Assembly (NCBI GenBank): GCA_945910645.1 | Contig: CAMDZB010000001.1 | Location: 67,180 to 131,179 of the forward strand | DNA: 64,000 bases | Reading direction: 5' to 3' | DNA from: an uncultured Spirochaetaceae bacterium | GTDB taxonomy: Bacteria; Spirochaetota; Spirochaetia; Sphaerochaetales; Sphaerochaetaceae | In this document: positions 34,681 through 59,238 of the stretch, in pieces | How positions within the stretch are numbered: the stretch's first letter is position 1 | How the letters are laid out: the number at the start of each line of letters is the position of its first letter | Notes under the pieces: generated by a model | What the model saw: only the letters and a program-made list of their open reading frames with translations | The model's database searches: none | Told to the model about the DNA's origin: nothing | Position numbers and translations under genes: made by a program

Positions 34681-35904
34681 ATGTATATCAAGAGACATTT
34701 GGAAAGCGAGGTTCTCAAAGCATCAAAAAATTATCCAGTAGTTATGGTATGTGGTCAGAGGCAGGTTGGCAAATCAACAATGCTATATCACATAAAAGAA
34801 AATGACAGAGTATACGTGTCACTTGACGATATAAACGCTCGTCGTCTTGCAGAAAACGATCCAACTTTATTTTTTGAAACATACGGATATAAGCTTATTA
34901 TTGATGAGTTTCAAAGAGTTCCAGATATACTTCTTGAGATCAAAAGGATTATCGATGAGAGGGCTCTGAAAGGTGATGATAACTCTGGTATGTTCTGGCT
35001 TACGGGCTCACAAAAGTTCAAGATGATGAAGAATATTTCAGAAAGCCTTGCAGGACGAGTTGCCGTGTTTGATATGTCGAGTCTCTCATCATCGGAAATA
35101 GATGGGAGATACTCACACTGCTTTTCACCTAAAATTGATGTGATTAAGGCTTATCAAGAGGGGCTACATGCTAAAAATATTCACGAAATCTACGAGGCTA
35201 TTTTTAAGGGCGGAATGCCGAAGCTCATCACATCGGACATAGAAAGAGATAGATATTATGCCGATTATGTTAATACGTATCTTGAGCGAGACATCAAAGA
35301 TCTCTCACAGGTTGGCAACTTGAGTAAGTTTTATGACTTCTTGGTGCTCATTGCCGCGCGTACAGCACAGGAACTAAAGTATAGCGATCTTGCAAACGCC
35401 GTAGGAATTTCAGCCCCAACAATTAAGAACTGGGTAAGCATCCTTGAGCGATCAGGCGTAATCTTCCTTCTTCATCCTTACTCATCTAATCTATCAAAGC
35501 GGCTCGTTAAAACACCTAAGATCTACTTTATGGATACAGGATTATGTGCATATTTATGCCGTTGGCCGAATCCAGAAACATTAGAGAATGGTGCAATGGA
35601 TGGCGCCTTCTTAGAAACTTATGCTGTCTCTGAGATTGTAAAAAGTTACTACAACTCTGGCATCACTCCAAACTTCTATTATTACCGTGATACAGACAAG
35701 AAGGAAATAGATCTCCTCTTTGAAGAAGCTAACACGCTCTATCCTGTTGAAATCAAGAAATCCATATCTCCTCAAGGTGCTGATAAAAACTTTAACGCTC
35801 TTAATAAGTTTAATAAAACTGTCGCCCCTGGCGTAATCCTTTGCTTAACGCCTGCGGTTGTTCCTGTTAAGAGGGGACTTTTTCTTTGCCCTCTCGTTGT
35901 CTAG
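34681..35904 (+). CDS. AAA-family ATPase with a DUF4143-type C-terminal domain
   Basis: The Walker A motif is GQRQVGKST and the Walker B motif is LIIDEFQ. The C-terminal region is conserved with the paralogue at 58036..59238 (YFMDTGLCAYL, ETYAVSEIVKSY, EIDLL). Confidence 0.75.
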   Translation: MYIKRHLESEVLKASKNYPVVMVCGQRQVGKSTMLYHIKENDRVYVSLDDINARRLAENDPTLFFETYGYKLIIDEFQRVPDILLEIKRIIDERALKGDDNSGMFWLTGSQKFKMMKNISESLAGRVAVFDMSSLSSSEIDGRYSHCFSPKIDVIKAYQEGLHAKNIHEIYEAIFKGGMPKLITSDIERDRYYADYVNTYLERDIKDLSQVGNLSKFYDFLVLIAARTAQELKYSDLANAVGISAPTIKNWVSILERSGVIFLLHPYSSNLSKRLVKTPKIYFMDTGLCAYLCRWPNPETLENGAMDGAFLETYAVSEIVKSYYNSGITPNFYYYRDTDKKEIDLLFEEANTLYPVEIKKSISPQGADKNFNALNKFNKTVAPGVILCLTPAVVPVKRGLFLCPLVV

Positions 35905-40268: not shown

Positions 40269-41150
40269 ATGCCAATTACAGTCGAACGTGAAAAATGGAT
40301 TTTATATAAACATACTTGCAACTATGAGATGATTAAAGCGGTAGCTTTGGACGTGAAGAATAGTTGTAAAAGCGATATTTCAGATTTGGAACGGCATAGA
40401 ATGCAAGAACGTCTTGCCGCTTTGGATTTGTATCGCACGAGAAATCCGAAAGAACATCCGTTAGACTCTATAAACCATAGAATCAACACGCTTGAATTTT
40501 GGATGTTCGGTTACGAAGATAATACTAATGGAGACAAGAAGTTTATTTTCAGCCCCTTGGGTAACTTGTTTTTCAATTATTGACGGATCCAAGATTGGAA
40601 GGTAAATTATACAATTATGAAGAAGAACTGATATTACCGTTCGTTAACAGAGTTACGCCCGAAGCCTACGAACAAATCGTAAATCAAATCTTATCTGTTC
40701 GTAACGCGGAAGACGACGATATTATAAGAACGTTTAAGTCCGACGAACATACTTACGTAAACACCGTATACGAATGGGAGTATTATACTCAAACGTTGTT
40801 GGCGCAGGTTGGTATAATTAACAAAGTCGAAGGAGATACGCTTTGTAAACTTTACCACCCTTCAAAACCTACTAGCAAAAGTTTGCCTACGGGAAGACGA
40901 GCGACAAAGGATATATTGCTCTTAAAGACGAGTGCGTTACGTTCCCGCTACGAAGTGAGATATAAAAGAAACGCCTATCGTTATCATTTTGGCGAACACA
41001 TTCGCCGAATACTTGTATAACAATATCTTCCACGAAGTAAGAGATATCAAATATGCGGATTTCGATAATATTATCATAAACAATTTGAGAACGGATATAA
41101 GCGGACTTATATCGAATATGACGCTTGAAAAGTTTGCCACCAATAGTTAA
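40269..41150 (+). pseudogene. Twice-frameshifted gene upstream of vsr (possible decayed restriction endonuclease)
   Basis: Three consecutive open segments are found: phase A 40269-40583, phase B about 40580-41020, and phase A again about 40959-41150. Segments overlap at their ends and there are no intergenic gaps. The last stop (41148) lies 5 nt before the vsr ATG. The function is inferred from context only. Confidence 0.45.
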
Positions 41151-41155
41151 TCTTT

Positions 41156-41539
41156 ATGTCGGATATCTTTGAACCTAAAAAACGATCCGCTATTATGAGC
41201 AAGGTTCGGTCAAAAGGTAATAAATCGACCGAATTAAGGCTTATCAAATATTTTAAGGAGAACAATATGCACGGATGGCGTCGTGGTTATAAGGTTAAAG
41301 GACATCCCGATTTTGTTTTTCTTGATTATAAGATTGCTATTTTTGTTGACGGATGCTTTTGGCACGGTCACGACTGTCGCAATACTCGTCCGTCCGAAAA
41401 CGCAGATTTTTGGCAAAAGAAACGAGAACGTAATATGCTTCATGATCGGGAGATAACCGCATTGTTTGAAGCGAGAGGTTGGACAGTAATTCGCATTTGG
41501 GAATGCGAATTGAGAAAGAAAAATTACGAGTATCAATGA
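41156..41539 (+). CDS. vsr: Very short patch repair endonuclease
   Basis: The sequence RSAIMSKVRSKGNKSTELRL...GHPDFVFLDYKIAIFVDGCFWHGHDC...IRIWECE matches the Vsr signature. Confidence 0.92.
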   Translation: MSDIFEPKKRSAIMSKVRSKGNKSTELRLIKYFKENNMHGWRRGYKVKGHPDFVFLDYKIAIFVDGCFWHGHDCRNTRPSENADFWQKKRERNMLHDREITALFEARGWTVIRIWECELRKKNYEYQ

Positions 41540-41596
41540 ACGAGAATAAAAGAAACTATGGAAGCAGAATTATAAACCTTAATCGGAGATGGAATT

Positions 41597-42649
41597 ATGC
41601 CTTTTGAAGTTGTAGATTTGTTTTGTGGCGTCGGCGGACTTACTTGCGGTATGAAGCAAGCGGGTTTTAATGTCGTCGCGGGTTTTGATAATGATAAAAC
41701 CTGCGAGTACGCCTATTCTTTTAACAATCAAACTAATTTTATATGTAGGAATATTCGCGAAGTCGAAGCGCGGGACATTGATAATTGTTATAGTGAGGGC
41801 GCGGATAAAATATTGGTCGGTTGCGCTCCTTGTCAACCTTTTTCAACAATGAGTTATAAACGCTTCAAGTCGTCTTCGCGTGAATTGGACGGAAAATACG
41901 ATTTATTAAAAGAATTTGGGCGTTTAATAAAAGGCGTTTCACCTTCTATTGTCTCTATGGAAAACGTCCCTGAAATTCGTAATTCTGGCGTTTTTGAAGA
42001 TTTTATAAAAACGTTACAAGACGAAGGATATTATACGGACGGAGGACAAGTCGTTTATTGTCCCGATTATGGGATCCCTCAAAATAGGCATAGATTTATT
42101 CTATTAGCGTCGAAATATGGCGAAATTCATTTGCTTCCTCCGACTCATAAAAGGAAAGACGTAACGGTTCGTCCGTTTATTGAAAAATTGCCCCCTATTT
42201 CCGCCGGTGAAACGTGTCAATCAGATCGTCTCCATAGAACGGCAACTCTTTCCCCTATCAATTTGCGTAGAATTCAAGCATCTGTGCCGGGCGGGACTTG
42301 GAAAGATTGGCCGGAAGAATTGAGATGTAAGTGTCATAAAAAGGATACGGGACAAACATATACGTCGGTCTATGGGCGTATGTCGTGGGATAAAATTGGT
42401 CCAACGATGACGACGCAGTTTTTCTGTTATGGGACAGGTCGTTATGGGCATCCTGAACAAGACAGAGCGTTATCATTACGGGAAGGCGCATTGTTACAAA
42501 CTTTTCCACAAGACTATGAGTTTTTCCCGCCTGAAGAACAGGAATATAGTATGCGCGACGTGGCAAGGCACATCGGTAATGCCGTACCCGTTAGATTAGG
42601 TGAAATCATAGGTGAAAGTATTAGCAGACATATTAACGATATGAGGTAA
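41597..42649 (+). CDS. dcm: DNA (cytosine-5)-methyltransferase
   Basis: The motifs are I (DLFCGVGGLTCG), IV (GCAPCQPFS), VI (SMENVPE), VIII (QNRHRFILLA) and X (GNAVPVRLG). Confidence 0.93.
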   Translation: MPFEVVDLFCGVGGLTCGMKQAGFNVVAGFDNDKTCEYAYSFNNQTNFICRNIREVEARDIDNCYSEGADKILVGCAPCQPFSTMSYKRFKSSSRELDGKYDLLKEFGRLIKGVSPSIVSMENVPEIRNSGVFEDFIKTLQDEGYYTDGGQVVYCPDYGIPQNRHRFILLASKYGEIHLLPPTHKRKDVTVRPFIEKLPPISAGETCQSDRLHRTATLSPINLRRIQASVPGGTWKDWPEELRCKCHKKDTGQTYTSVYGRMSWDKIGPTMTTQFFCYGTGRYGHPEQDRALSLREGALLQTFPQDYEFFPPEEQEYSMRDVARHIGNAVPVRLGEIIGESISRHINDMR

Positions 42650-42652
42650 TAT

Positions 42653-44320
42653 ATGAATATGAACGAAGAAAGTCTTCAACTTAAATTTGATCCCCGTACT
42701 ATTGAGCATTTGGGAATAAAAATGTATTCTCAATTACCATACGCTTTAGCCGAATTGGTGGCAAACGCTTATGATGCTGGCGCTTCTAACGTGATTATAA
42801 ATCTCAATGATAAGGAATCAGACTCCAAGAGCATTGTAATTAGCGACGACGGAGACGGAATGTCGTATGAAGAAGTTAGAGATAATTTTTTAGTAATCGG
42901 TAGAAAGCGTAGAGATACTGACGAGAGCAGAACTAATTCTAAAGGTAGAAAGATCACAGGCAAAAAAGGTTTGGGTAAACTTGCGCTTTTTGGAATCGGA
43001 AAAACAATTACGATTGAAACGACAAAAGCGGGAGAAAGTCAAAAAACCGTCTTTATGCTTGATTGGGATAGTATTCTTAACGAACCTTCGGGTGTATATC
43101 ACCCGACAGAAAATAGAGTGGATAAGGAGAATATCAACGAAAAAGGGACGAAAATTATATTGTCAAGATTATCAAGAGTAACTGATTTTGATTTAATGGC
43201 AACGGCTATTTCGTTATCAAAACTTTTTAATTGTTTTGATTTGGATTTTAATATTAAAATAGCGAAAAACGACGATGAGCCAATTCTTTTAACAAGGGAA
43301 ATGAAGTATAACGAAATAGAAAAAGAGTTTGAATGGGACATTCAAGAAATTGTTTCGGAATTGAAAGCGGATTACAAATATAAAACGGAATTAAAGGGCA
43401 CTATTATTTCTTCAAAGAAACCGATGAGGCAGGATTTAAGAGGCATTATTCTTTATGTAAACGGTCGTCTTGCTAATATACCGGGATTCTTTGGAGTGTC
43501 CGAAGCCGGACATACTTTTTCTTATATTTCTGGCTGGATAGATGCCGATTATCTTGATGAATTTGATAAAGATTTGATATCCACCGATAGACAGTCAATA
43601 AGTTGGGATTTACCGGAAGCGGAAGAATTGCAAAACTATTTACAAAGTATTGTGCGCTTCTTGGTTAAAGATTGGAGCAGTAAAAGGAAAAAAGCAAAAG
43701 AAGATAATAATACGCAAAAAACGGGAATTAACATTTCGGAATGGTATGACAAAGTCCCCGATTCTGTACGTCCCAAATTAAAGATCGTTATTGATAAAAT
43801 TGCGGACAAGCCCGAGATAGACGATACGGATTTTTCTGCCGTAATACATAACGTATACGATTTAATCCCGCCCTATACTTATTATCACTACCGATTTTTG
43901 CATGAGCAAGTTCAAGACTCCGCGGAAACATATTATAAGGCAAAGAATTATTACGAAGCGTTTCAAGAAGCAATGAAAAGATATAAAAATGCGGTTAAGG
44001 ATAAATCGGGTGTTTCCGGGACTGAAGATCGCGACATCGTATCTAACGCATTTGGAAAAAATGGTGCGCTTAAAACGACGGCAAATTATAAGAACCGTCC
44101 TAATGGACAGCCTTTTGCCAAAAAAACATTAGAAAATATTGAAGAAGGACAACAGTTCTTATCTATGGGTGTCGTATGTGGCGGGAGAAATGTTGTCAGT
44201 CACGAAGAAATCGCAGATTTAAGGGATTCCAAATTGTTTACCGAAAAAGACTGTTTGGATTTATTGAGTTTACTTTCACATCTATTCAAGCGGCTGGATG
44301 AATCTAAGAAAAAAAAATGA
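42653..44320 (+). CDS. GHKL (HATPase_c_3 / MORC-like) ATPase fused to a C-terminal Ymh/TIGR02391-like domain
   Basis: The Bergerat-fold boxes are N (LAELVANAYDAGAS), G1 (ISDDGDGMS) and G2 (GKKGLGKLALFGIG). The C-terminal roughly 130 aa reach the motif CGGRNVVSHEE, which resembles the RNxxxH motif of the Ymh family. The start lies 4 nt after the dcm stop. Confidence 0.7.
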   Translation: MNMNEESLQLKFDPRTIEHLGIKMYSQLPYALAELVANAYDAGASNVIINLNDKESDSKSIVISDDGDGMSYEEVRDNFLVIGRKRRDTDESRTNSKGRKITGKKGLGKLALFGIGKTITIETTKAGESQKTVFMLDWDSILNEPSGVYHPTENRVDKENINEKGTKIILSRLSRVTDFDLMATAISLSKLFNCFDLDFNIKIAKNDDEPILLTREMKYNEIEKEFEWDIQEIVSELKADYKYKTELKGTIISSKKPMRQDLRGIILYVNGRLANIPGFFGVSEAGHTFSYISGWIDADYLDEFDKDLISTDRQSISWDLPEAEELQNYLQSIVRFLVKDWSSKRKKAKEDNNTQKTGINISEWYDKVPDSVRPKLKIVIDKIADKPEIDDTDFSAVIHNVYDLIPPYTYYHYRFLHEQVQDSAETYYKAKNYYEAFQEAMKRYKNAVKDKSGVSGTEDRDIVSNAFGKNGALKTTANYKNRPNGQPFAKKTLENIEEGQQFLSMGVVCGGRNVVSHEEIADLRDSKLFTEKDCLDLLSLLSHLFKRLDESKKKK

Positions 44321-44401
44321 AACAATCAACATATTGGATTCTGATATGAAAATGAAATCGTTTGAATACTATGATATGAATTATAGCCTTTATTCCTTTA
44401 T

Positions 44402-44902
44402 ATGCAACGGTCAAAGACGGGCGGGTTTGAAGTTGTTGATATTCTTAAGGAGAAAGTGGTTAGCAAGCCTTTGTTTAAGATTACCGATTCACAAAAACGA
44501 TGCCGTTACTGTGGGAAAACAGTATCCGAAGTAAGTTTTAATAAAAAAGAACATATTTTCCCAGAATCCATCGGTAATAAACTTTTTATAAGTAAAGGTT
44601 GCGAGTGTTATGATTGCAACAAGTTGTTCGGCGAAAACTATGAAAACGATCTTAATGCTTTTTTGTTCCCTTGTATAGTCTTAAATGGGATTATAGGAAA
44701 GAAAGGTCGTAAGAAGTATAAATCTTTTGATACTACGAGTACCGTCGATTTTTCAAACGATATTTTAACGATTAAAAAGCAAATTGGCAAAGCAAAAATT
44801 AGATTTGATGAGGCAAACAAGCAAATATTTTATGATTTTGATATACAGCCATATTCTTTGGCCAAGGTTTATAAAATATTGCTAACGATGCACTGCGCAT
44901 AA
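44402..44902 (+). CDS. HNH-motif endonuclease-like protein, possibly 3'-truncated
   Basis: The HNH-type pattern is CRYCGKTVSEVSFNKKEHIFPESIGN...CECYDCNKLF (CxxC...H...N...CxxCN). The ORF ends where the convergent hamB remnant begins. No RBS is evident. Confidence 0.55.
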   Translation: MQRSKTGGFEVVDILKEKVVSKPLFKITDSQKRCRYCGKTVSEVSFNKKEHIFPESIGNKLFISKGCECYDCNKLFGENYENDLNAFLFPCIVLNGIIGKKGRKKYKSFDTTSTVDFSNDILTIKKQIGKAKIRFDEANKQIFYDFDIQPYSLAKVYKILLTMHCA

Positions 44903-45740
44903 TTAATTCTGTTGCCTTAGTTTTTTCTGCACTAGTTGGCATTTGAATTGTCGCAGATTTTCCTTTAAATATGTCATTTTCACCTATTAAAATTTGGGAA
45001 GGCCACAATTCTTTTATATCAATTTGAGTCAAAATGGGTTTCCATATTTCTTTGTCAATATTTGTAAATAACAGCATTGTATACCAGGTAGTGTGCAGAT
45101 ATTTCTTTTTTACAACTGCACATAAAATATCGATAAAAAGTAATTCTCTATCAGTACCGTTTTGATAGATTTTTTTTCTTAGATTATCTAAATGCTTAAA
45201 AATATTTGCGGAATTCTCTCCTGTTGAGCAAAATTGGTTCCAAGAAGAAATTATATTATTAATAAATTCGATATAACCATTTTCTTGTATTTCTATTGAA
45301 AAATCATTTTTAGAAAACTCAATAGTAGCAAATCTAATTTATTAGCATCCAAATTTAATTTATACGGATTAAGTTTATCGGCAAGAACTTTGGTGCTTCC
45401 CATATAATCACATAAATAATAAGCCGCACTGCCCATTATTATAATAGTAGTCTCTATTTTCATCTTGTAATTTTGCATTTAAATATGCATCAAAGAACTG
45501 TGCCGAAAATACTAAGTTATCTTTTAATTCATTTAGGGAATCCTTTTCATTATTATCATTATTGCAAAATTTTGCAGAATAATCTCCTAATAAAGCAATA
45601 GTAAGAATAAATAAATCTTTAATTTTTTCTTTATCAATGTGTATACGATTTTCTATAAGAACATCATACTCATACATTTTTGCTTCAGATCTAGTCATGC
45701 CTAACAATTTATTGGAGTTAATTCCTGGTTTAAGCTTCAT
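44889..45740 (-). pseudogene. hamB: hamB (Hachiman helicase) remnant: frameshifted and truncated just after helicase motif I
   Basis: Three open segments lie in different phases: 45740-45408, 45478-45293 and about 45340-44889. The first overlaps the hamA stop by 11 nt. The last segment reads LWPSQ...GKSATIQMPTSAEKTKATELIM, an SF2 helicase motif I with the Gly of GKT replaced (AEKT). No further helicase motifs follow. Confidence 0.55.
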
Positions 45741-46548
45741 TGGCAGCCCTCCGATAAAGCTCGTGAACTAAATTCATCATATTATCACCCTTGACGATTA
45801 TAAGCATTAAATGAGGAATATCTACATGATTTGATGTATCCGATGTTCTTAAAACTTTTTCGTCATATATTTCGTTAGAAAACAATGCTGCTGCTCCATA
45901 CAACATAGTATATGGTCTATCTGATATATTTTCAAAACGTTCTACCTTTTTGGCATTTTCAATATTATTTCTCTCAATATATCTTTGTTTCATTGCATTT
46001 AAAGATTCTGCTATTCGCACATTATCCTTTCGAGAATCATCAATTGCTTTTTGCAATCGATTCTCGGTTGTATTTGTATATGAAGCTTTTGCTTCAATAA
46101 CCGTAAGAATATCCTTATTGGTTTCATTCGAATCAAATAATTTAAATCCAATTATATCTGACCCCATAGGGGATGAATTTCTATTAATTTTATTTGAATA
46201 TCTAGTTCTTGGAACCCAATAGTTCAATATATACTCAAGATAGTCAGATATTAATATTTCACTAAAATCGCCTGCACGGACACTTGGACCAGGTGCAACT
46301 GTTTGATCTGGGAATTTGAGGGTTAACAAATAATCCTTTTTTGACAAACCAGTTCCATTTCTTAAAAGATCTATTATTTCGTCAGAACAATAATGGTTTC
46401 TAAAATGTTTAGCCCAAGCCGACATGGTTTCAGCATCGCTACTATCATAATTAAAAGAAAAAACTTTAATAGGTTTTCCATCTGCGGTAGTAATGTTTTC
46501 TTTTTTTTCTTCAACTAACCATTCTGAAATTTTTTTTTGCCATGTCAT
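45730..46548 (-). CDS. hamA: HamA-like (DUF1837) Hachiman effector, PD-(D/E)xK type
   Basis: The 272-aa product carries GDFSEILISDYLEY, GSDIIGF and LTVIEAKAS (a D...ExK arrangement). A helicase-like gene follows immediately downstream, as in Hachiman. The family assignment is from memory of DUF1837 and has not been searched. Confidence 0.55.
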   Translation of the reverse strand: MTWQKKISEWLVEEKKENITTADGKPIKVFSFNYDSSDAETMSAWAKHFRNHYCSDEIIDLLRNGTGLSKKDYLLTLKFPDQTVAPGPSVRAGDFSEILISDYLEYILNYWVPRTRYSNKINRNSSPMGSDIIGFKLFDSNETNKDILTVIEAKASYTNTTENRLQKAIDDSRKDNVRIAESLNAMKQRYIERNNIENAKKVERFENISDRPYTMLYGAAALFSNEIYDEKVLRTSDTSNHVDIPHLMLIIVKGDNMMNLVHELYRRAANEA

Positions 46549-46664
46549 TATAGAGTTCCTCTACATTATTATATAATAAAATTAATAATAAACATTAGTG
46601 TTGCTATTCTTAACTTTTATTCATTACATTGTGCTAATGACATGGTTAGTATATAATAATTTCT

Positions 46665-47852
46665 ATGGAGAAGGTAAACGATTTGTCGCCCATAATTAAG
46701 TGGGCTGGAGGTAAAGAACAAGAACTAAAGTATATTCTTCCGAATGTACCGGATACTTTTGTTCGCTTTATTGAGCCTTTCGTTGGCGGAGGGGCAGTTT
46801 ATTTCTCCATAGGGAATAAAAATAAGCTCATAAATGACAAATCTGTTGAATTAACAACTTTATACAATAACATAAAGTTTAAAAACAAGGATTTTATAAC
46901 TCGTTTGCAGTCTCTTCAAGATGCTTGGATTGGGTTAGAAAGCATTTTGGATAATAGTATTGATGTTTTTAACACAACTTATTTAAAATATAAAGTTAAT
47001 AAAATTGCAAAAGAAGATTTAATTAAAAATATTGAATTGTTTATAAACGATAATAAAACGGCTTTTAAACAACTATTAAATCCTGAATTACTGAAATATT
47101 ATGACATTTTTGAAAAAGAACTATTGCGTAATATAAGTGCAAAATTAGTTCGCATGAAGGATTTGGAAGAAAAAAAAGGAAATCTTCCGGAAAAAGACAT
47201 TCACGATAATTTTGAATGTGCATTAAAAGGTTCTTTCTATATGTTTATAAGAGCTTTATATAATAAATATGACAATAGCGAATATTTTTATTTTATTCGT
47301 GAATACTGCTATTCTTCTATGTTTCGATATAATTCTAATGGAGAATTTAATGTTCCTTATGGTGGAATTTCTTATAATAGAAAGAACTTTCAAAGAAAAA
47401 TTGACTATATAAAATCCAAAGAACTTCAGTCTCATTTTGCAAATACAGACATATACAATCTCGATTTTGAAGAATTTTTGGACAAAATTAAACTTACAAA
47501 GAATGATTTTATATTTTTAGATCCCCCATATGATACTGATTTTAGCAGTTATGTAAATAATACTTTTGACAAACAAGATCAGGAACGCTTGGCAAATTAT
47601 TTAATCAATAAATGTCCGGCAAAATTTATGCTTGTAATTAAAAATACAGAATTTATTTCGAATTTGTATAGCAGTAAAGGACTATACATAACAAGTTTTG
47701 ATAAAACATATATGGTTAATTTCAATGGTCGCAATAATAGGGATTGTGAGCACTTGTTAATTACAAATTATCCTATTGGCGAAGAAGTTAAGAAAATAAG
47801 TAATGTTGCAGTTCTTAAACAAAATAAGGAAAAGCAACTGCAATATGCATAG
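46665..47852 (+). CDS. Dam-family (D12 class, alpha-type) N6-adenine DNA methyltransferase with a large internal insertion
   Basis: The motifs are IIKWAGGKEQEL, motif I (IEPFVGGGAVYF) and motif IV (FLDPPYDT). At 395 aa it is longer than the roughly 280 aa of canonical Dam. Confidence 0.85.
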   Translation: MEKVNDLSPIIKWAGGKEQELKYILPNVPDTFVRFIEPFVGGGAVYFSIGNKNKLINDKSVELTTLYNNIKFKNKDFITRLQSLQDAWIGLESILDNSIDVFNTTYLKYKVNKIAKEDLIKNIELFINDNKTAFKQLLNPELLKYYDIFEKELLRNISAKLVRMKDLEEKKGNLPEKDIHDNFECALKGSFYMFIRALYNKYDNSEYFYFIREYCYSSMFRYNSNGEFNVPYGGISYNRKNFQRKIDYIKSKELQSHFANTDIYNLDFEEFLDKIKLTKNDFIFLDPPYDTDFSSYVNNTFDKQDQERLANYLINKCPAKFMLVIKNTEFISNLYSSKGLYITSFDKTYMVNFNGRNNRDCEHLLITNYPIGEEVKKISNVAVLKQNKEKQLQYA

Positions 47853-47862
47853 GCAATTGGCT

Positions 47863-48524
47863 ATGAAAGGTAAAATTACTGAAATTATAGAACAAGAGTA
47901 TCTTAAAATGTTAAAATCTATATAATTAGATTTTAAAAGATTTTTTGTGAAAAAAACACAATTTCTTATTGGACGCTTTGAATATAGATACAAAAATAGG
48001 TCTAGTGTTTGGCAGTAGTTTTGTATCAAAAGTTGTAAATGCTATGTAAAGAGTGGCATTAGAAATATCACGTTTAAAATATGGTGAAGAGAATGTACCA
48101 TATATAATATTCATAAAATGAAGGAAATTTAGGATGCAAACCTCCAAAAAAATGTAGCTTAAATATTACAGAGTTAAAAACCTTATTAATCAAGTTACCT
48201 AAAAATATTATAAAAAATGATCTTGATTTGGTGTTTTATGATAGGAAAAATTGACATTTGTTAGAAATAAAAGTTAATGGAGATTTAGAGATTTCCAATG
48301 CAAGAGATAAGATAAGAAAATTATTCAAATCATATGTAGCTTTAAATTCAAATAATACAAAGATTTATTTTGCAATATACTATCATAAAACAGGTAGTGG
48401 AAAATGGAAAGAATCAATGAAAAAATTCCTACAATATCCTGATATGGTTTTAATAGATTCAGAATTTTGGGAAAAGATTTTACCAGAGAATATTTCATTT
48501 GATGAATTTAAAATATCTATCTAA
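47863..48524 (+). pseudogene. Decayed paralogue of the downstream PD-ExK restriction endonuclease
   Basis: The pieces align with the 48589 protein. MKGKITEIIEQEYLKMLKSI* matches MKDRIFQIVEEEFSSLVTRIQ. GLVFGSSFVSKVVNAM*RVALEISRLKYGEENVPYII matches HMVFVSSFESKSGNSIQKVAKEVAKLRYGAENVPQIV. DLDLVFYDRKN*HLLEIKVNGD matches VDLAFWDGDELNIMEIKAGGN. In-frame stops occur at 47923, 48047 and about 48252, together with frame changes. Confidence 0.8.
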
Positions 48525-48588
48525 AAGTAATGAAAAAAATTAAAATCACCAGTATAATTAATGATTTAAAAATATATGTGAGGAATAA

Positions 48589-49434
48589 ATGAAAGATAGA
48601 ATATTTCAAATCGTAGAAGAAGAGTTTTCATCACTAGTTACAAGAATTCAAAGTGACTTTGTAAGCAATTTCAAAGCGAAGCAAAACAATTTTTTGTTAA
48701 AAGAATTGGACACAATGATGTCTGCCCATATGGTTTTCGTGAGTAGTTTTGAGTCAAAGAGTGGTAACTCAATACAGAAAGTTGCTAAAGAAGTTGCAAA
48801 ATTAAGATATGGAGCAGAAAATGTTCCTCAGATAGTTAATCCTCATAACTTAGAACATAATGTTCAAAACCCAAATGAACATGAACAAATAATTGTTTCA
48901 AATATCGATATGGGCAACTCTCAATTACAAGGAAGGATTACTGAATTTATGACAAGATGTGAAGGTGATAGTAAAAGAAAAATTTGTTGTTCCGTAAATC
49001 ATGAAACTATTTTGGAATTATTAGAACAACCTTTACCAATAACAAATGAAATTCATACCAAGCCCGTTGATTTAGCTTTTTGGGATGGCGATGAATTAAA
49101 TATTATGGAAATTAAAGCTGGAGGCAATCTCGATAGCAGTAATGCTCCATCAAATGCTAAAAAGTTATTAACAATTTATACCGGCTTAAATTATAGAAAA
49201 ACAAGACCATATTTTGCAACTATTTACCACAAAGACGGTGAAGGTAGAACTTGGTCTGGTTCTATCAAAAAATATTTGCAGTATCCACATATGTTTTTAG
49301 TGGGTTCTGCTTTCTGGAATAAAATTTTACCTAGTGGTATTGATTTTAATGATTTTACTAAGATTTATAACGAAGCAATGAGTCAAATAAATTTGAACGA
49401 AAAATTAAATGAGATGATTAGAAGTTGCTCATAG
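48589..49434 (+). CDS. Type II restriction endonuclease-like PD-ExK protein
   Basis: The 281-aa product has the catalytic-type arrangement PVDLAFWDGD...IMEIKAGG. It is flanked by two DNA methyltransferase genes and preceded by an RBS (GAGGA). The specificity and family name are not determinable here. Confidence 0.65.
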   Translation: MKDRIFQIVEEEFSSLVTRIQSDFVSNFKAKQNNFLLKELDTMMSAHMVFVSSFESKSGNSIQKVAKEVAKLRYGAENVPQIVNPHNLEHNVQNPNEHEQIIVSNIDMGNSQLQGRITEFMTRCEGDSKRKICCSVNHETILELLEQPLPITNEIHTKPVDLAFWDGDELNIMEIKAGGNLDSSNAPSNAKKLLTIYTGLNYRKTRPYFATIYHKDGEGRTWSGSIKKYLQYPHMFLVGSAFWNKILPSGIDFNDFTKIYNEAMSQINLNEKLNEMIRSCS

Positions 49435-50149
49435 CATATTCTTTTATTTTGCGTTCATGTGCCTGAAATCTTTTATTTGTAGCATCAAAATATTCTTTTT
49501 CTAGTTCGATACCTATAAAATTACGTTTTAAATTATATGCGGCAATTCCGGTTGAACCAACACCCATAAACGGATCGAGAATAGTATCACCTTCATTAGA
49601 GGCAATTTTAATAATATGTTCTAATAATTTTATGGGTTTCTGTGCAGGATGTTTTGGATTAGAAAGTCTTTCAGGCTGCATACAAATTGGAGTTTGAATA
49701 AAATTGTGCATTTCTTTTTGATTGCTAAAATTCCATTTATGCCCTTTATTCCACATGCAAACAATAAGCTCACAACTATTTAAAAAACCATTTTTATAGA
49801 TTTTAGGAGCAGGATTTGTTTTATGCCAAACCATAAATTGAAAAGTATCGAATTCAGGATCGAATGCTTCGTGCCATTTCCCGATTTGATTATATGTTGT
49901 AAAAACAAATATATTTCCTTTTGGTTTAATTATCCTTTTAAAATTAGCTAACAAATCTCGTGGTTCAATTTCAGGTTTATCCCAATCAGCTAAATTATTA
50001 TTAAGTGCAGAACGACCGGGTAAATCAATATTTCCTGTAGAATACTTTGCGATATTATACGGAGGATCCGTCAATATTAAATCGACAGATTTATCAGGAA
50101 TATCATCTAATAGTTTAAAACAGTCACCATATCTTAAATCGTAAGCCAT
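49418..50149 (-). CDS. Beta-class N6-adenine/N4-cytosine DNA methyltransferase (N-4/N-6 methylase domain)
   Basis: Motif IV (LILTDPPYNI) precedes motif I (DPFMGVGSTGIAA), which is the beta-class order. The ATG at 50149 is preceded by AAAGGAGATAAGA. The 3' end overlaps the convergent endonuclease gene by 17 nt. Confidence 0.85.
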   Translation of the reverse strand: MAYDLRYGDCFKLLDDIPDKSVDLILTDPPYNIAKYSTGNIDLPGRSALNNNLADWDKPEIEPRDLLANFKRIIKPKGNIFVFTTYNQIGKWHEAFDPEFDTFQFMVWHKTNPAPKIYKNGFLNSCELIVCMWNKGHKWNFSNQKEMHNFIQTPICMQPERLSNPKHPAQKPIKLLEHIIKIASNEGDTILDPFMGVGSTGIAAYNLKRNFIGIELEKEYFDATNKRFQAHERKIKEYAMSNF

Positions 50150-50324
50150 TCTTATCTCCTTTCTTTTATAATACATTAAAATTTTTGCTTTGTCCTTTTA
50201 TTTGAGTTTTCATAACATACATCATTCTTTCAATTGGTTATTCAATATAATGTGTTGCTATGTAAAGATTTGAGTGCTTTCTTTCTTGTTTTACGCTAAT
50301 GTTGTGTATCAAAGGAGGTTTAAT

Positions 50325-50540
50325 ATGGAAAAAGTCGAATTGAATATTACTCTAAAGGAGTTTAAGCAATTAAGTAAGTGGGCGGAGGATATTTATAACA
50401 CAGCGATTGTTATTGATTATTTCGTAGCGAATCAACCAGAAATAGAAGAACGCTATAATCTCGCATCGGTAGTTAAGCATCTGCGAAACGATGCAGATAT
50501 GTTGAATGCATTCTTCATTGTCCACGGAAAAAGATGTTGA
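50325..50540 (+). CDS. Small hypothetical protein (71 aa)
   Basis: The ATG at 50325 is preceded by AAAGGAGG. No family was recognised. Confidence 0.4.
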   Translation: MEKVELNITLKEFKQLSKWAEDIYNTAIVIDYFVANQPEIEERYNLASVVKHLRNDADMLNAFFIVHGKRC

Positions 50541-50841
50541 TATTTAAATGCCATTTAAACTGTGTTCATAAATCATTATGTCCAAATAATATGATTTTAG
50601 ACGCATACACTTGATGTTTATCACCTAAAGAGTGATGAATGGTGTAGTTTGAAAGGAGCATATATTGCGTATTGTCTTCAAGCATAATTTTATATCCAAC
50701 ATGCGCTGTTGATTTTCAATTCAAAAATCAGACAAGTGTAGCTCTGCAGGGTTTACCTGTAAATGGATTAATTACTTGCACTGCAAGTTTATGCCCATCT
50801 GCGACTAAAATATCTCCGATTTGCAATACCCCCCACATACT

Positions 50842-50914
50842 TGGAGATGAGGGGAGTCGAACCCCCGACCCTTAGATTGCGAACCTAATGCTCTACCAAC
50901 TGAGCTACATCCCC
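50842..50914 (-). tRNA. tRNA-Ala (anticodon CGC)
   Basis: The reverse complement is GGGGATGTAGCTCAGTTGGTAGAGCATTAGGTTCGCAATCTAAGGGTCGGGGGTTCGACTCCCCTCATCTCCA. It has the G3:U70 Ala identity pair, a TT-CGC-AA anticodon loop and a GGTTCGACTCC T-arm. Confidence 0.9.
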
Positions 50915-51088
50915 ATATCCTATACTTTATTACATCGTCAAAACAAATTCCACAGATTGAGGCAATAATTATAACCAAAAACAGGTATTTTTTGCGGATT
51001 TATTTTTGCTAATTTTTGTTGCTAAAAATCATTGAATCAAATAATTTATTGAAAATATAATTAAAGTATCCTAAAAAGAGGTGAGATT

Positions 51089-57469: not shown

Positions 57470-58039
57470 GTGAAATATATTAATATAAAAGATACAGATA
57501 AGATACAGAAGGAAGTAGAGGAGTTTAAGAAACAGCTCATGGATTTTTCTAAACCTGAAGACCTTCCTGTTTTATATAAAGAAGTTAAGAAGACTATTCC
57601 ATGGTATAGAAGAAAGGACTTTTTCGCATATATGACTTATATTGTCCTTTCAAATAACCAGGGTGGAAATCAGCGTCCACAGGATGCACAGAATGCACGC
57701 CGTAACGCTCAGGATAATGCGGCCTCTCAAAAGAACGTTTACAACAATCAGAAGAAGCCAGTTTCACAGAACGTGGCTAGCGCATCAAATGCATCAAATA
57801 CGGTTATGTGGACTAACTACTCACCTCGTAATGCTGAAGCACAGAGTGAGTTTAAGAAGTTCATCGTGACAAAGGCAAATATTGACCCATCATCGATTGT
57901 TGAAGTATCTCCAAAGAGGTTCTGCTCGTTCGTTACATTCAAGGATCAGGACTCTTTGAATAAGGCAATTTCTGCTGTTAACAACCAGACTTTCGATAAC
58001 AGAGTGGTTAAGGCTAATTACAACAACGCAAAGGCTTAA
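57470..58039 (+). CDS. Hypothetical protein with a Q/N-rich linker and a C-terminal RRM-like domain
   Basis: The GTG start is preceded by AGGAG. The low-complexity segment is NNQGGNQRPQDAQNARRNAQDNAASQKN. The C-terminus (CSFVTFKDQDSLNKAISAVNNQTFDNRVVKANY) resembles RNP-1 plus the beta4 strand of an RRM. Confidence 0.5.
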   Translation: MKYINIKDTDKIQKEVEEFKKQLMDFSKPEDLPVLYKEVKKTIPWYRRKDFFAYMTYIVLSNNQGGNQRPQDAQNARRNAQDNAASQKNVYNNQKKPVSQNVASASNASNTVMWTNYSPRNAEAQSEFKKFIVTKANIDPSSIVEVSPKRFCSFVTFKDQDSLNKAISAVNNQTFDNRVVKANYNNAKA

Positions 58040-59238
58040 ATATAAGCGATTGGAATCGAATACACGTCTCTCCTCATTGGCATAAAGGTGCTGGTGAGTG
58101 AGAGAATAGCTCCTTTCCCACGTTTATTATCAGGAATCAAGCTAAAGTTTTTAGTCATATCAAGTGTAGGTGATGCGGTCTGTTTTATCTCAATAGGGTA
58201 TGCCTTTCCATTGTCTTCAATAATCAGGTCTATCTCCTGCCCGTTTGATGTTCTAAGATAGTAGATGTTAGGCGTTTTGCCGTTATGAATGTAACTTTTG
58301 ATAATCTCAGAGACAGCATAGGTTTCAACAAATGCGCCTGAAAGGTAACTCTCGGATAGCGTGTTTCCATCCTTGATTGAACAGAGATATGAGGCAAGTC
58401 CTGTGTCCATAAAGTAGATCTTTGGAGCCTTGATTAGCCTCTTTCCAATGTTGCTCTCAAAATACGGCGGTAGAATGTATATGATGTTGAGTGTCTGTAG
58501 GATGCTTATCCAGTTCTTAACTGTGTTTGGAGAGATGCCAAGGTCGCTCGATAGGTCAGTATAGTTTATGAGCTGACCTGTTCTTGTTGCAAGGATTTTT
58601 AGAAAGTTCTTAAATGTCAATTCATTTGATATACGGCTAATGTCGTTGATGTCTCGCATGAGGTATGTGTCGATGTACGATTTGTAGTATAGTTCCCAGT
58701 CCGTGCTAGTGCTAAATAGCTGTGGATAAGAGCCTTTTTGTATTATGCTAAACATCTCAGAAGTGGTGTAGGAGTTCCTATTTGTGTCCAAGGGTAGATC
58801 TGGTGTAAATGCACCTCTTTTGGGATCACTCTGTTTTTCGCTTTGCGATAACCCTTGTAGGTCAAGCACAGCAACTCTTCCTGCCAAGCTATCAGATACA
58901 TTCTGCATTAGTGAAAATTTTTGAGATCCTGTAAGCCAGAAATCACCGCACTTATTGGATTTATCAACAATCATTTTGATGCGTAGGAAGATCTCAGGTG
59001 CCTTTTGTACCTCATCGATTAGTAGAGGTGGATGGTACTTTTCAAAGAACAGATCAGGATCCTCTTTGACAAGAGAAAGTATGTTTGTATCATCAAGAGT
59101 AACTCGTGTACGGTTAGGTTCAGAGAGTCTCTCTAAAAGTGTTGATTTGCCAGTTTGTCGGGGTCCTGTGAGTAAGATGACCTTAAAGTTTTTTGATGAT
59201 TCCTTAATTACTGATGATAGTGTTCGCTCGTAGTACAT
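58036..59238 (-). CDS. AAA-family ATPase with a DUF4143-type C-terminal domain (paralogue of 34681..35904)
   Basis: The Walker A motif is GPRQTGKST and the Walker B motif is LLIDEVQ. Blocks shared with the paralogue are YFMDTGLASYL, ETYAVSEIIKSY and EIDLI. Confidence 0.75.
   Translation of the reverse strand: MYYERTLSSVIKESSKNFKVILLTGPRQTGKSTLLERLSEPNRTRVTLDDTNILSLVKEDPDLFFEKYHPPLLIDEVQKAPEIFLRIKMIVDKSNKCGDFWLTGSQKFSLMQNVSDSLAGRVAVLDLQGLSQSEKQSDPKRGAFTPDLPLDTNRNSYTTSEMFSIIQKGSYPQLFSTSTDWELYYKSYIDTYLMRDINDISRISNELTFKNFLKILATRTGQLINYTDLSSDLGISPNTVKNWISILQTLNIIYILPPYFESNIGKRLIKAPKIYFMDTGLASYLCSIKDGNTLSESYLSGAFVETYAVSEIIKSYIHNGKTPNIYYLRTSNGQEIDLIIEDNGKAYPIEIKQTASPTLDMTKNFSLIPDNKRGKGAILSLTSTFMPMRRDVYSIPIAYI

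Follow-up and report, generated by a model that had tools for sequence, protein, structure and literature searches.

The Hachiman defence systems closest to the locus described here pair a nuclease, HamA, with a helicase, HamB, and recent biochemical studies have shown how poorly the nuclease fares without its partner. HamA is insoluble on its own (Tuck et al. 2024, PMC12278908), and by itself it shows no nuclease activity (Cui et al. 2025, PMC11914072; Tian et al. 2025, PMC13064477). The helical/TPR bundle at the N-terminus of HamB is the HamA-binding domain, and Hachiman defence depends on HamB both binding ATP and acting as a helicase (PMC12278908, PMC11914072), while expression of the system is mildly toxic (PMC12278908). 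Systems with a DUF1837-only HamA form type I-A in the scheme of Cui et al. (2025, PMC11914072). Here, we describe a hamA gene that stands beside the remains of a hamB gene in a 64,000-nucleotide (nt) stretch of an uncultured Spirochaetaceae bacterium (GCA_945910645.1, contig CAMDZB010000001.1, positions 67,180 to 131,179), hereafter the window. A first-pass annotation had proposed a Hachiman remnant with an intact hamA next to a frameshifted, truncated hamB, a description that has held up in every respect in which it could be tested. In our assessment the locus is probably what remains of a type I Hachiman cassette, now dead, that a spirochaete with a small genome gained by horizontal transfer.

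The 272-amino-acid (aa) product of hamA matches the PADLOC HamA profile PDLC00161 from end to end (positions 1-271 of 271, E 2.6e-109) and scores above the cut-off of the Pfam HamA family PF08878 (E 5.6e-10, 39.9 bits against a cut-off of 25), bearing out its earlier recognition as HamA/DUF1837. In an alignment of the window protein with 116 homologues of 255-300 aa, all 67 of the columns that are at least 95% conserved carry the consensus residue, and D131, E152 and K154 of the PD-(D/E)xK-type motif, invariant in sets of 32 and 117 aligned homologues, are all present. A phmmer search of the PDB sequences with the window HamA returned no match, and only the family profile reached 8VX9_A, the HamA of Escherichia coli ECOR31 (E 6e-5); the HMMER register near EAK is off by two residues, and the equivalence to 8VX9_A rests on the shared hhhhEAK motif. 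A GAGGA ribosome-binding site, read directly from the sequence, lies 7-8 nt ahead of the ATG, and a scan for promoters and terminators gave 17 hits against 15.0 +/- 3.4 in shuffled sequence, no better than chance. As far as the sequence tells, hamA is intact, and it belongs to type I Hachiman with a DUF1837-only HamA.

Directly downstream, on the same strand and in operon-like adjacency, a hamB frame starts at 45740 and overlaps hamA by 11 nt, as in relatives; the helicase-type gene reported with this overlap is indeed there. We mapped its lesions by base-by-base alignment to the closest intact locus, L004 (DABG01000010.1, Candidatus Gastranaerophilales HUM_9), which is 90% identical to the window in DNA over 46578-44892 and 92% identical in HamA. 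Relative to L004, an extra base near 45444, at codon ~98, causes a +1 frameshift, and a base missing between 45310 and 45309, at codon ~143, causes a -1 frameshift. The gene is therefore broken into three segments, as had been noted, but these lie in only two reading phases, not three, because the second indel restores the first frame. The ORF (open reading frame) of segment 1 reads on in the wrong frame until it meets a stop at 45408, and encodes 110 aa in all. The third lesion is a GGA to GAA change at 44927-44925 that converts the Walker A sequence PTSAGKT, found in all relatives, to PTSAEKT (G271E), so that the degenerate motif I seen at first pass is real, and the fourth is an abrupt end of homology at 44888-44892. 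When read through its stops, the remnant matches the PADLOC HamB profile PDLC00188 at positions 2-284 of 1037, and it comprises the first ~286 of ~1047 hamB codons, close to the earlier estimate of ~280.

The remaining part of the gene holds little of the helicase. In the intact HamB of L004, the DEAD domain spans residues 263-421 and Helicase_C residues 537-652 of 1055; the stub stops after the N-terminal helical domain and helicase motif I, and the remaining helicase core lies beyond the junction. It lacks a complete SF2/Ski2-like core (RecA1 and RecA2 with motifs I-VI), the C-terminal domains and a functional Walker A (GxGKT), and its N-terminal helical (NAH/TPR) HamA-binding domain, though recognisable, is not one open frame on account of the two frameshifts. 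Programmed frameshifting was considered and rejected, as two shifts would be needed and the gene is truncated anyway. The coordinates of these and other features of the region are collected in Table 1.

Table 1. Features of the Hachiman relic and of the surrounding island (positions in the window).
Feature	Position	Strand	Basis or remark
hamA, 272 aa, DUF1837 / PD-(D/E)xK nuclease gene, intact	45730..46548	(-)	profile matches
Upstream boundary of the cassette, 30 nt ahead of the hamA ATG, with the GAGGA ribosome-binding site	46549..46578	(-)	blastn similarity to L004 begins, and similarity to relatives' cassettes stops on the upstream side, at 46578
hamB stub segment 1, codons 1 to ~98, original frame	45445..45740	(-)	PDLC00188 2-97 of 1037; L004 alignment
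hamB stub segment 2, ~45 codons, HamB only in the shifted frame	45310..45444	(-)	L004 alignment; PDLC00188 89-140 of 1037
hamB stub segment 3, codons ~144-286, original frame again, ends just past Walker A	44892..45309	(-)	PDLC00188 222-284 of 1037; L004 alignment
Deletion junction between convergent, 3'-truncated hamB and HNH_5 genes	44888..44892	.	homology ends, GC change
HNH_5 endonuclease gene, 166 aa, 3'-truncated	44402..44902	(+)	PF14279 E 6.3e-12, residues 34-84
Vsr - Dcm - 555-aa GHKL ATPase/TIGR02391 (Ymh) fusion, tight unit	41156-44320		
TdeIII/HinfI-type restriction endonuclease C-terminal fragment, 88-aa ORF	48258-48524 (decayed frame from ~47863)		Pfam positions 148-228/242
Intact 281-aa TdeIII-type paralogue	48589-49434		directly downstream of the 88-aa fragment
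tRNA-Ala(cgc)	50841-50915		island edge

The end of hamB coincides with the end of a second broken gene. Similarity to related Hachiman loci stops at 44881-44892 in 11 of 11 cases, and from the opposite side runs a convergent HNH_5 gene whose product has the N-terminal HNH_5 domain and lacks the C-terminal half of a full-length protein. Among 1.84 billion representative proteins, relatives of this product are mostly 300-350 aa long, and window residues 1-163 align by phmmer to residues ~28-189 of ~329-aa proteins; the best BLASTP match (P0241) is covered at 28-192 of 329 and phrog_26663 at 30-165 of 324. NCBIfam yielded neither a HamA nor an HNH match. Homology to the HNH_5 family reaches residue ~163-166, i.e. 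~44890, and the last few codons and the stop come from antisense hamB DNA. The two genes, each without its 3' part, thus meet within ~5 nt with no spacer, at a point where the GC content changes, being 0.33-0.47 to the left and 0.22-0.32 to the right. A single deletion is the simplest reading of two convergent, 3'-truncated genes that abut in this way. As a candidate microhomology we considered the loose ATATTTT...TTGGCC resemblance 12 nt away, which is unconvincing.

Because the genome is a 33-contig draft and one of the indels falls at a short A run, it might be supposed that hamB is really intact and that the frameshifts or the junction are sequencing errors or a chimeric join. Exact protein look-ups with the chimeric 166-aa HNH product and with the 272-aa HamA, however, recovered the structure from at least 10 separately assembled samples (at least 7 ENA assemblies and 3 Logan runs), the contigs of which, compared over 41000-50500, are 100% identical to the window with zero gaps; the matching stretches reach 8.8 kb and take in the junction as well as both indels. 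The junction, moreover, entails the loss of ~760 codons, which is no homopolymer slip and which no homopolymer correction could restore. An artefact is on these grounds extremely unlikely, and the earlier proviso that resequencing might bring back a full-length helicase effectively fails, since what is at issue is a structural break that recurs in at least 10 assemblies. Polymorphism data from these contigs are biased, since contigs were retrieved by exact HamA identity. In one sample, the contig (L095) carries 11 clustered differences within 78 nt (46869-46946, codons 69-94 of the D12 methyltransferase gene), with an identical hamA; these may represent a small recombination patch or strain variation.

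Comparison with intact relatives indicates what was lost. The nearest cassettes, with 78-92% HamA identity, are found in metagenome-assembled genomes of gut Gastranaerophilales and uncultured Bacilli (for example, L004, L006 = CALVIA010000057.1 and L008 = OZ006972.1), and HamA was not found in the 40 genomes of relatives of the window organism that were searched. With the hosts of the nearest cassettes in other phyla and none in these 40 relatives, horizontal transfer of the cassette is indicated. In 8 of 8 close loci a hamB of 1046-1055 aa lies directly downstream of hamA, and in 7 of the 8 an overlapping third gene of 422 aa follows hamB. The ancestral cassette consisted of hamA and a hamB of ~1047 codons, which in most close relatives is followed by the 422-aa gene. 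Like the window's own cassette, these relatives have the 11-nt hamA/hamB overlap, and several have a divergent DNA methyltransferase gene upstream; unlike the window, they possess a full hamB and, in 7 of 8, the operonic third gene. The third gene (L004:11949-13217, and also in L005, L006, L008, L009, L010, L032 and L112) overlaps the hamB end by 1-4 nt and has no Pfam, PADLOC or PHROG match, with a weak match to Phage_lambda_Ea47 in a precomputed list. The window and L007 lack it, L111 has it split, and in L113 only fragments are left. Possibly it is a third component, so far undescribed, of Hachiman systems in this clade.

The events at the window locus can be reconstructed as follows. One deletion would have taken the 3' ends of hamB and of the HNH_5 gene together with everything between them, including the whole helicase core, and loss of that core would have left the system unable to sense or defend. 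As HamA is insoluble or silent without HamB, the orphan hamA would then be harmless and near neutral, with nothing to select against, and, Hachiman being mildly toxic, the loss of hamB may even have been favoured. That hamA is still intact would reflect a four-fold smaller mutational target (819 vs ~3150 nt), by which hamB is expected to be hit first about four times in five, and too short a time since the loss. The orphan hamA is accordingly judged to be probably a harmless leftover. Of the four outcomes that the first-pass annotation had listed for it, tolerance is the best supported; control in trans is unlikely, since no second hamB-like gene was found in the whole assembly, which is 95.7% complete and in which both the HamB profile and the full-length L004 HamB match the stub only. 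The further statement that an orphan hamA is unexpected was too strong, given the insolubility or inactivity of HamA alone in three studies and the other genomes in which an intact hamA goes with a broken hamB or with none.

Analyses of selection complicate this picture. In pairwise comparison with L004, hamA has a ratio of nonsynonymous to synonymous substitution rates (dN/dS) of 0.24, a usual value in its family, and the stub, once frame-corrected, one of 0.33. Of 224 amino-acid columns that do not vary among 8 intact relatives, 21 are changed in the stub and 0-4 in each relative; for the window hamA the figure is 2 of 136. Among changes polarised to the window branch, the stub has 16 synonymous to 20 nonsynonymous (omega ~0.30), and pure neutrality is rejected even there. 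Several points weigh against regarding hamA as a mere bystander. Its window-branch changes number 6 synonymous to 2 nonsynonymous (omega ~0.08), and neutrality is rejected (p = 0.0013), which implies that constraint on hamA lasted through most or all of the period after it split from its closest relative; hamA is without any sign of decay, and the stub shows relaxed constraint. Such constraint fits a recent loss of hamB and continued selection on hamA equally well, and branch lengths cannot date the loss, because the hamA and hamB trees disagree as a consequence of mosaic recombination. The discordance separates L004, L005 and L032 from L006-L010. The hamB of L004 and L032, for example, are 98.7% identical in their 5' part and the hamA genes only 85%, and L010 combines a hamA with no more than 70% identity to the others and a hamB that matches L009 at 99%; these discordant genealogies indicate that cassettes have recombined at the hamA/hamB boundary or close to it. 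Finally, the survey of orphan loci described below was seeded with HamA and therefore gives no rate of hamA-only vs hamB-only survival.

These data bring into view the possibility that selection has kept hamA after the loss of hamB, the protein serving, by itself or together with some unrelated partner, as a nuclease that has been turned to another defence or DNA-metabolism role. The low omega of hamA beside a stub with two frameshifts and 21 changes at invariant positions would suit such a role, as would the full set of conserved residues including the D131/E152/K154 motif, the retained ribosome-binding site, and the recurrence in other lineages of an intact hamA with a dead hamB. We nonetheless consider it unlikely, in that HamA alone was insoluble or inactive in all three biochemical studies, the genome offers no candidate partner helicase, and the counts are small: the nonsynonymous to synonymous ratios of hamA and the stub do not differ significantly (Fisher p = 0.24), the chance of a frameshift-free hamA at the indel rate of the stub is 0.14, and target size alone makes hamB the first gene hit in about four cases out of five.

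Parallel loci were sought in a survey of 80 species-representative loci, whose seeding with HamA matches means that it cannot show whether hamA outlives hamB more often. A hamB sequence lies directly downstream in 79 of the 80. Broken cassettes nevertheless recur among them: L013 and L057 have an intact hamA ORF with hamB stubs of 162-174 aa; L066 and L039 have an intact hamA ORF with a hamB that is interrupted by insertion sequences (ISs) or frameshifted, respectively; and L030 has an intact hamA and no hamB. Among close relatives fetched from metagenomes, L113 (GCA_964018095.1) combines an intact hamA with a hamB that is truncated at its end and has lost residues 470-803 internally, and L112 has a frameshift near hamB codon 38. 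Such losses of one partner, by deletion, frameshift or IS insertion, fall inside defence islands. L113, L013, L057 and L030 thus resemble the window in that hamA is intact and hamB broken or gone, but their breakpoints and causes are independent, the junction in the window being with a truncated HNH_5 gene and without an IS. In another HamA subfamily (MPWTSEHTKWL...), one that has been widely transferred, the hamB stubs L057:8809-9333 and L063:3430-3931 end at the same nucleotide when compared with L059, and the stub L013:8809-9297 ends 15 nt beyond that point; the L063 contig ends at the stub end, whereas in L057 an IS200/RAYT-like gene comes next. The pattern suggests that breaks recur where the HamA-binding domain ends.

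The near coincidence of these end points in the L057, L063 and L013 stubs invites a further explanation, namely that the 110-aa product of the window stub (HamB residues 1 to ~98 plus an out-of-frame tail) binds HamA and keeps it soluble or silenced, an antitoxin-like dependence that would channel decay. The N-terminal helical/TPR domain of HamB does bind HamA (PMC12278908, PMC11914072), and the stub start preserves the 11-nt overlap with hamA. Yet the first 98 codons show no special conservation, holding 8 of the 21 replacements at invariant positions, with 11 synonymous and 6 nonsynonymous changes at conserved codons; any deletion that enters from downstream leaves a 5' stub beside hamA, so that polarity suffices; the hamA of L030 is intact without any stub; and HamA alone is reported to be inactive, not toxic. 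Such a dependence therefore appears very improbable. The broader proposition that hamA is retained by selection, whether through a HamB-independent function or through a HamA-stub pair that steers decay to 'hamA + stub', we regard as quite unlikely, although, if true, selective retention or dependence would explain the recurrence in unrelated lineages (the window, L113, L013, L057 and L063). Were hamA-only relics commoner than gene size predicts, this would bear on the restraint of HamA by HamB, a matter that the window locus does not demonstrate. We retain the reading of the locus as a dead relic with a leftover hamA.

The genomic setting also bears the marks of turnover. The genome measures 1.15 Mb. 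The window's LeuRS shares 69% identity with proteins of Sphaerochaetaceae/Bullifex, and its YidC is of the long form and accompanied by a TolC-like protein, all of which marks the host as a spirochaete related to Sphaerochaetaceae. The relic lies in a patchwork defence island of ~11 kb between a MATE gene and the tRNA-Ala(cgc) gene. In this island, a TdeIII-type fragment and its intact paralogue sit between D12-class and N6_N4 methyltransferase genes; the 88-aa TdeIII-type ORF is a second pseudogene in the island that holds hamA, from which we take decay to be general there. Adjoining the HNH_5 gene is the tight and widely conserved Vsr-Dcm-GHKL/Ymh unit, whose fusion protein resembles restriction enzymes of the BbrUII/HgiDII family (E 1.4e-61, below the family cut-off) and has hundreds of homologues at 65-95% identity, with a C5 methyltransferase alongside in 3 of 3 contexts checked. 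HNH_5 as a third component of this unit was considered and rejected: in the three relatives of the unit that were compared, the enzyme is 79-88% identical and no HNH_5 gene adjoins, and the HNH_5 gene is therefore a separate relic. Additionally, paralogous AAA_14 + DUF4143 ATPase genes flank the island region at 34681-35904 (+) and 58036-59238 (-), ~22 kb apart.

Several practical and conceptual points follow. The genome is not to be scored as Hachiman-positive, and the hamB, HNH_5 and TdeIII-like endonuclease genes of the island should be annotated as pseudogenes. With a junction placed to within 5 nt and seen again in at least 10 samples, the locus offers a well-documented natural case in which the Hachiman nuclease gene persists without its helicase, in line with the inertness of isolated HamA in biochemical work. 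The locus also illustrates the turnover of a defence island by deletion in a small-genome gut spirochaete, following acquisition of a cassette across phyla.

Among described systems, the window locus is best compared with the type I HamAB of ECOR31 (PDB 8VX9/8VXY, PMC12278908). Both have a single-domain DUF1837 PD-(D/E)xK HamA with the GDxxEI, G(S/E)D(I/V)IG and EAK motifs, the catalytic residues being E138/K140 in ECOR31, and in both hamB comes after hamA and opens with the helical domain, at the N-terminus, to which HamA binds. Unlike the ECOR31 HamB, however, the window stub is twice frameshifted, carries the Gly-to-Glu change in Walker A, and lacks RecA2, the winged helix, the C-terminal domains and all of RecA1 that follows Walker A. 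With its helicase partner absent, the window system cannot work as described for ECOR31, and the locus is predicted to give no protection against phage. It is a known defence system caught in ordinary defence-island decay.

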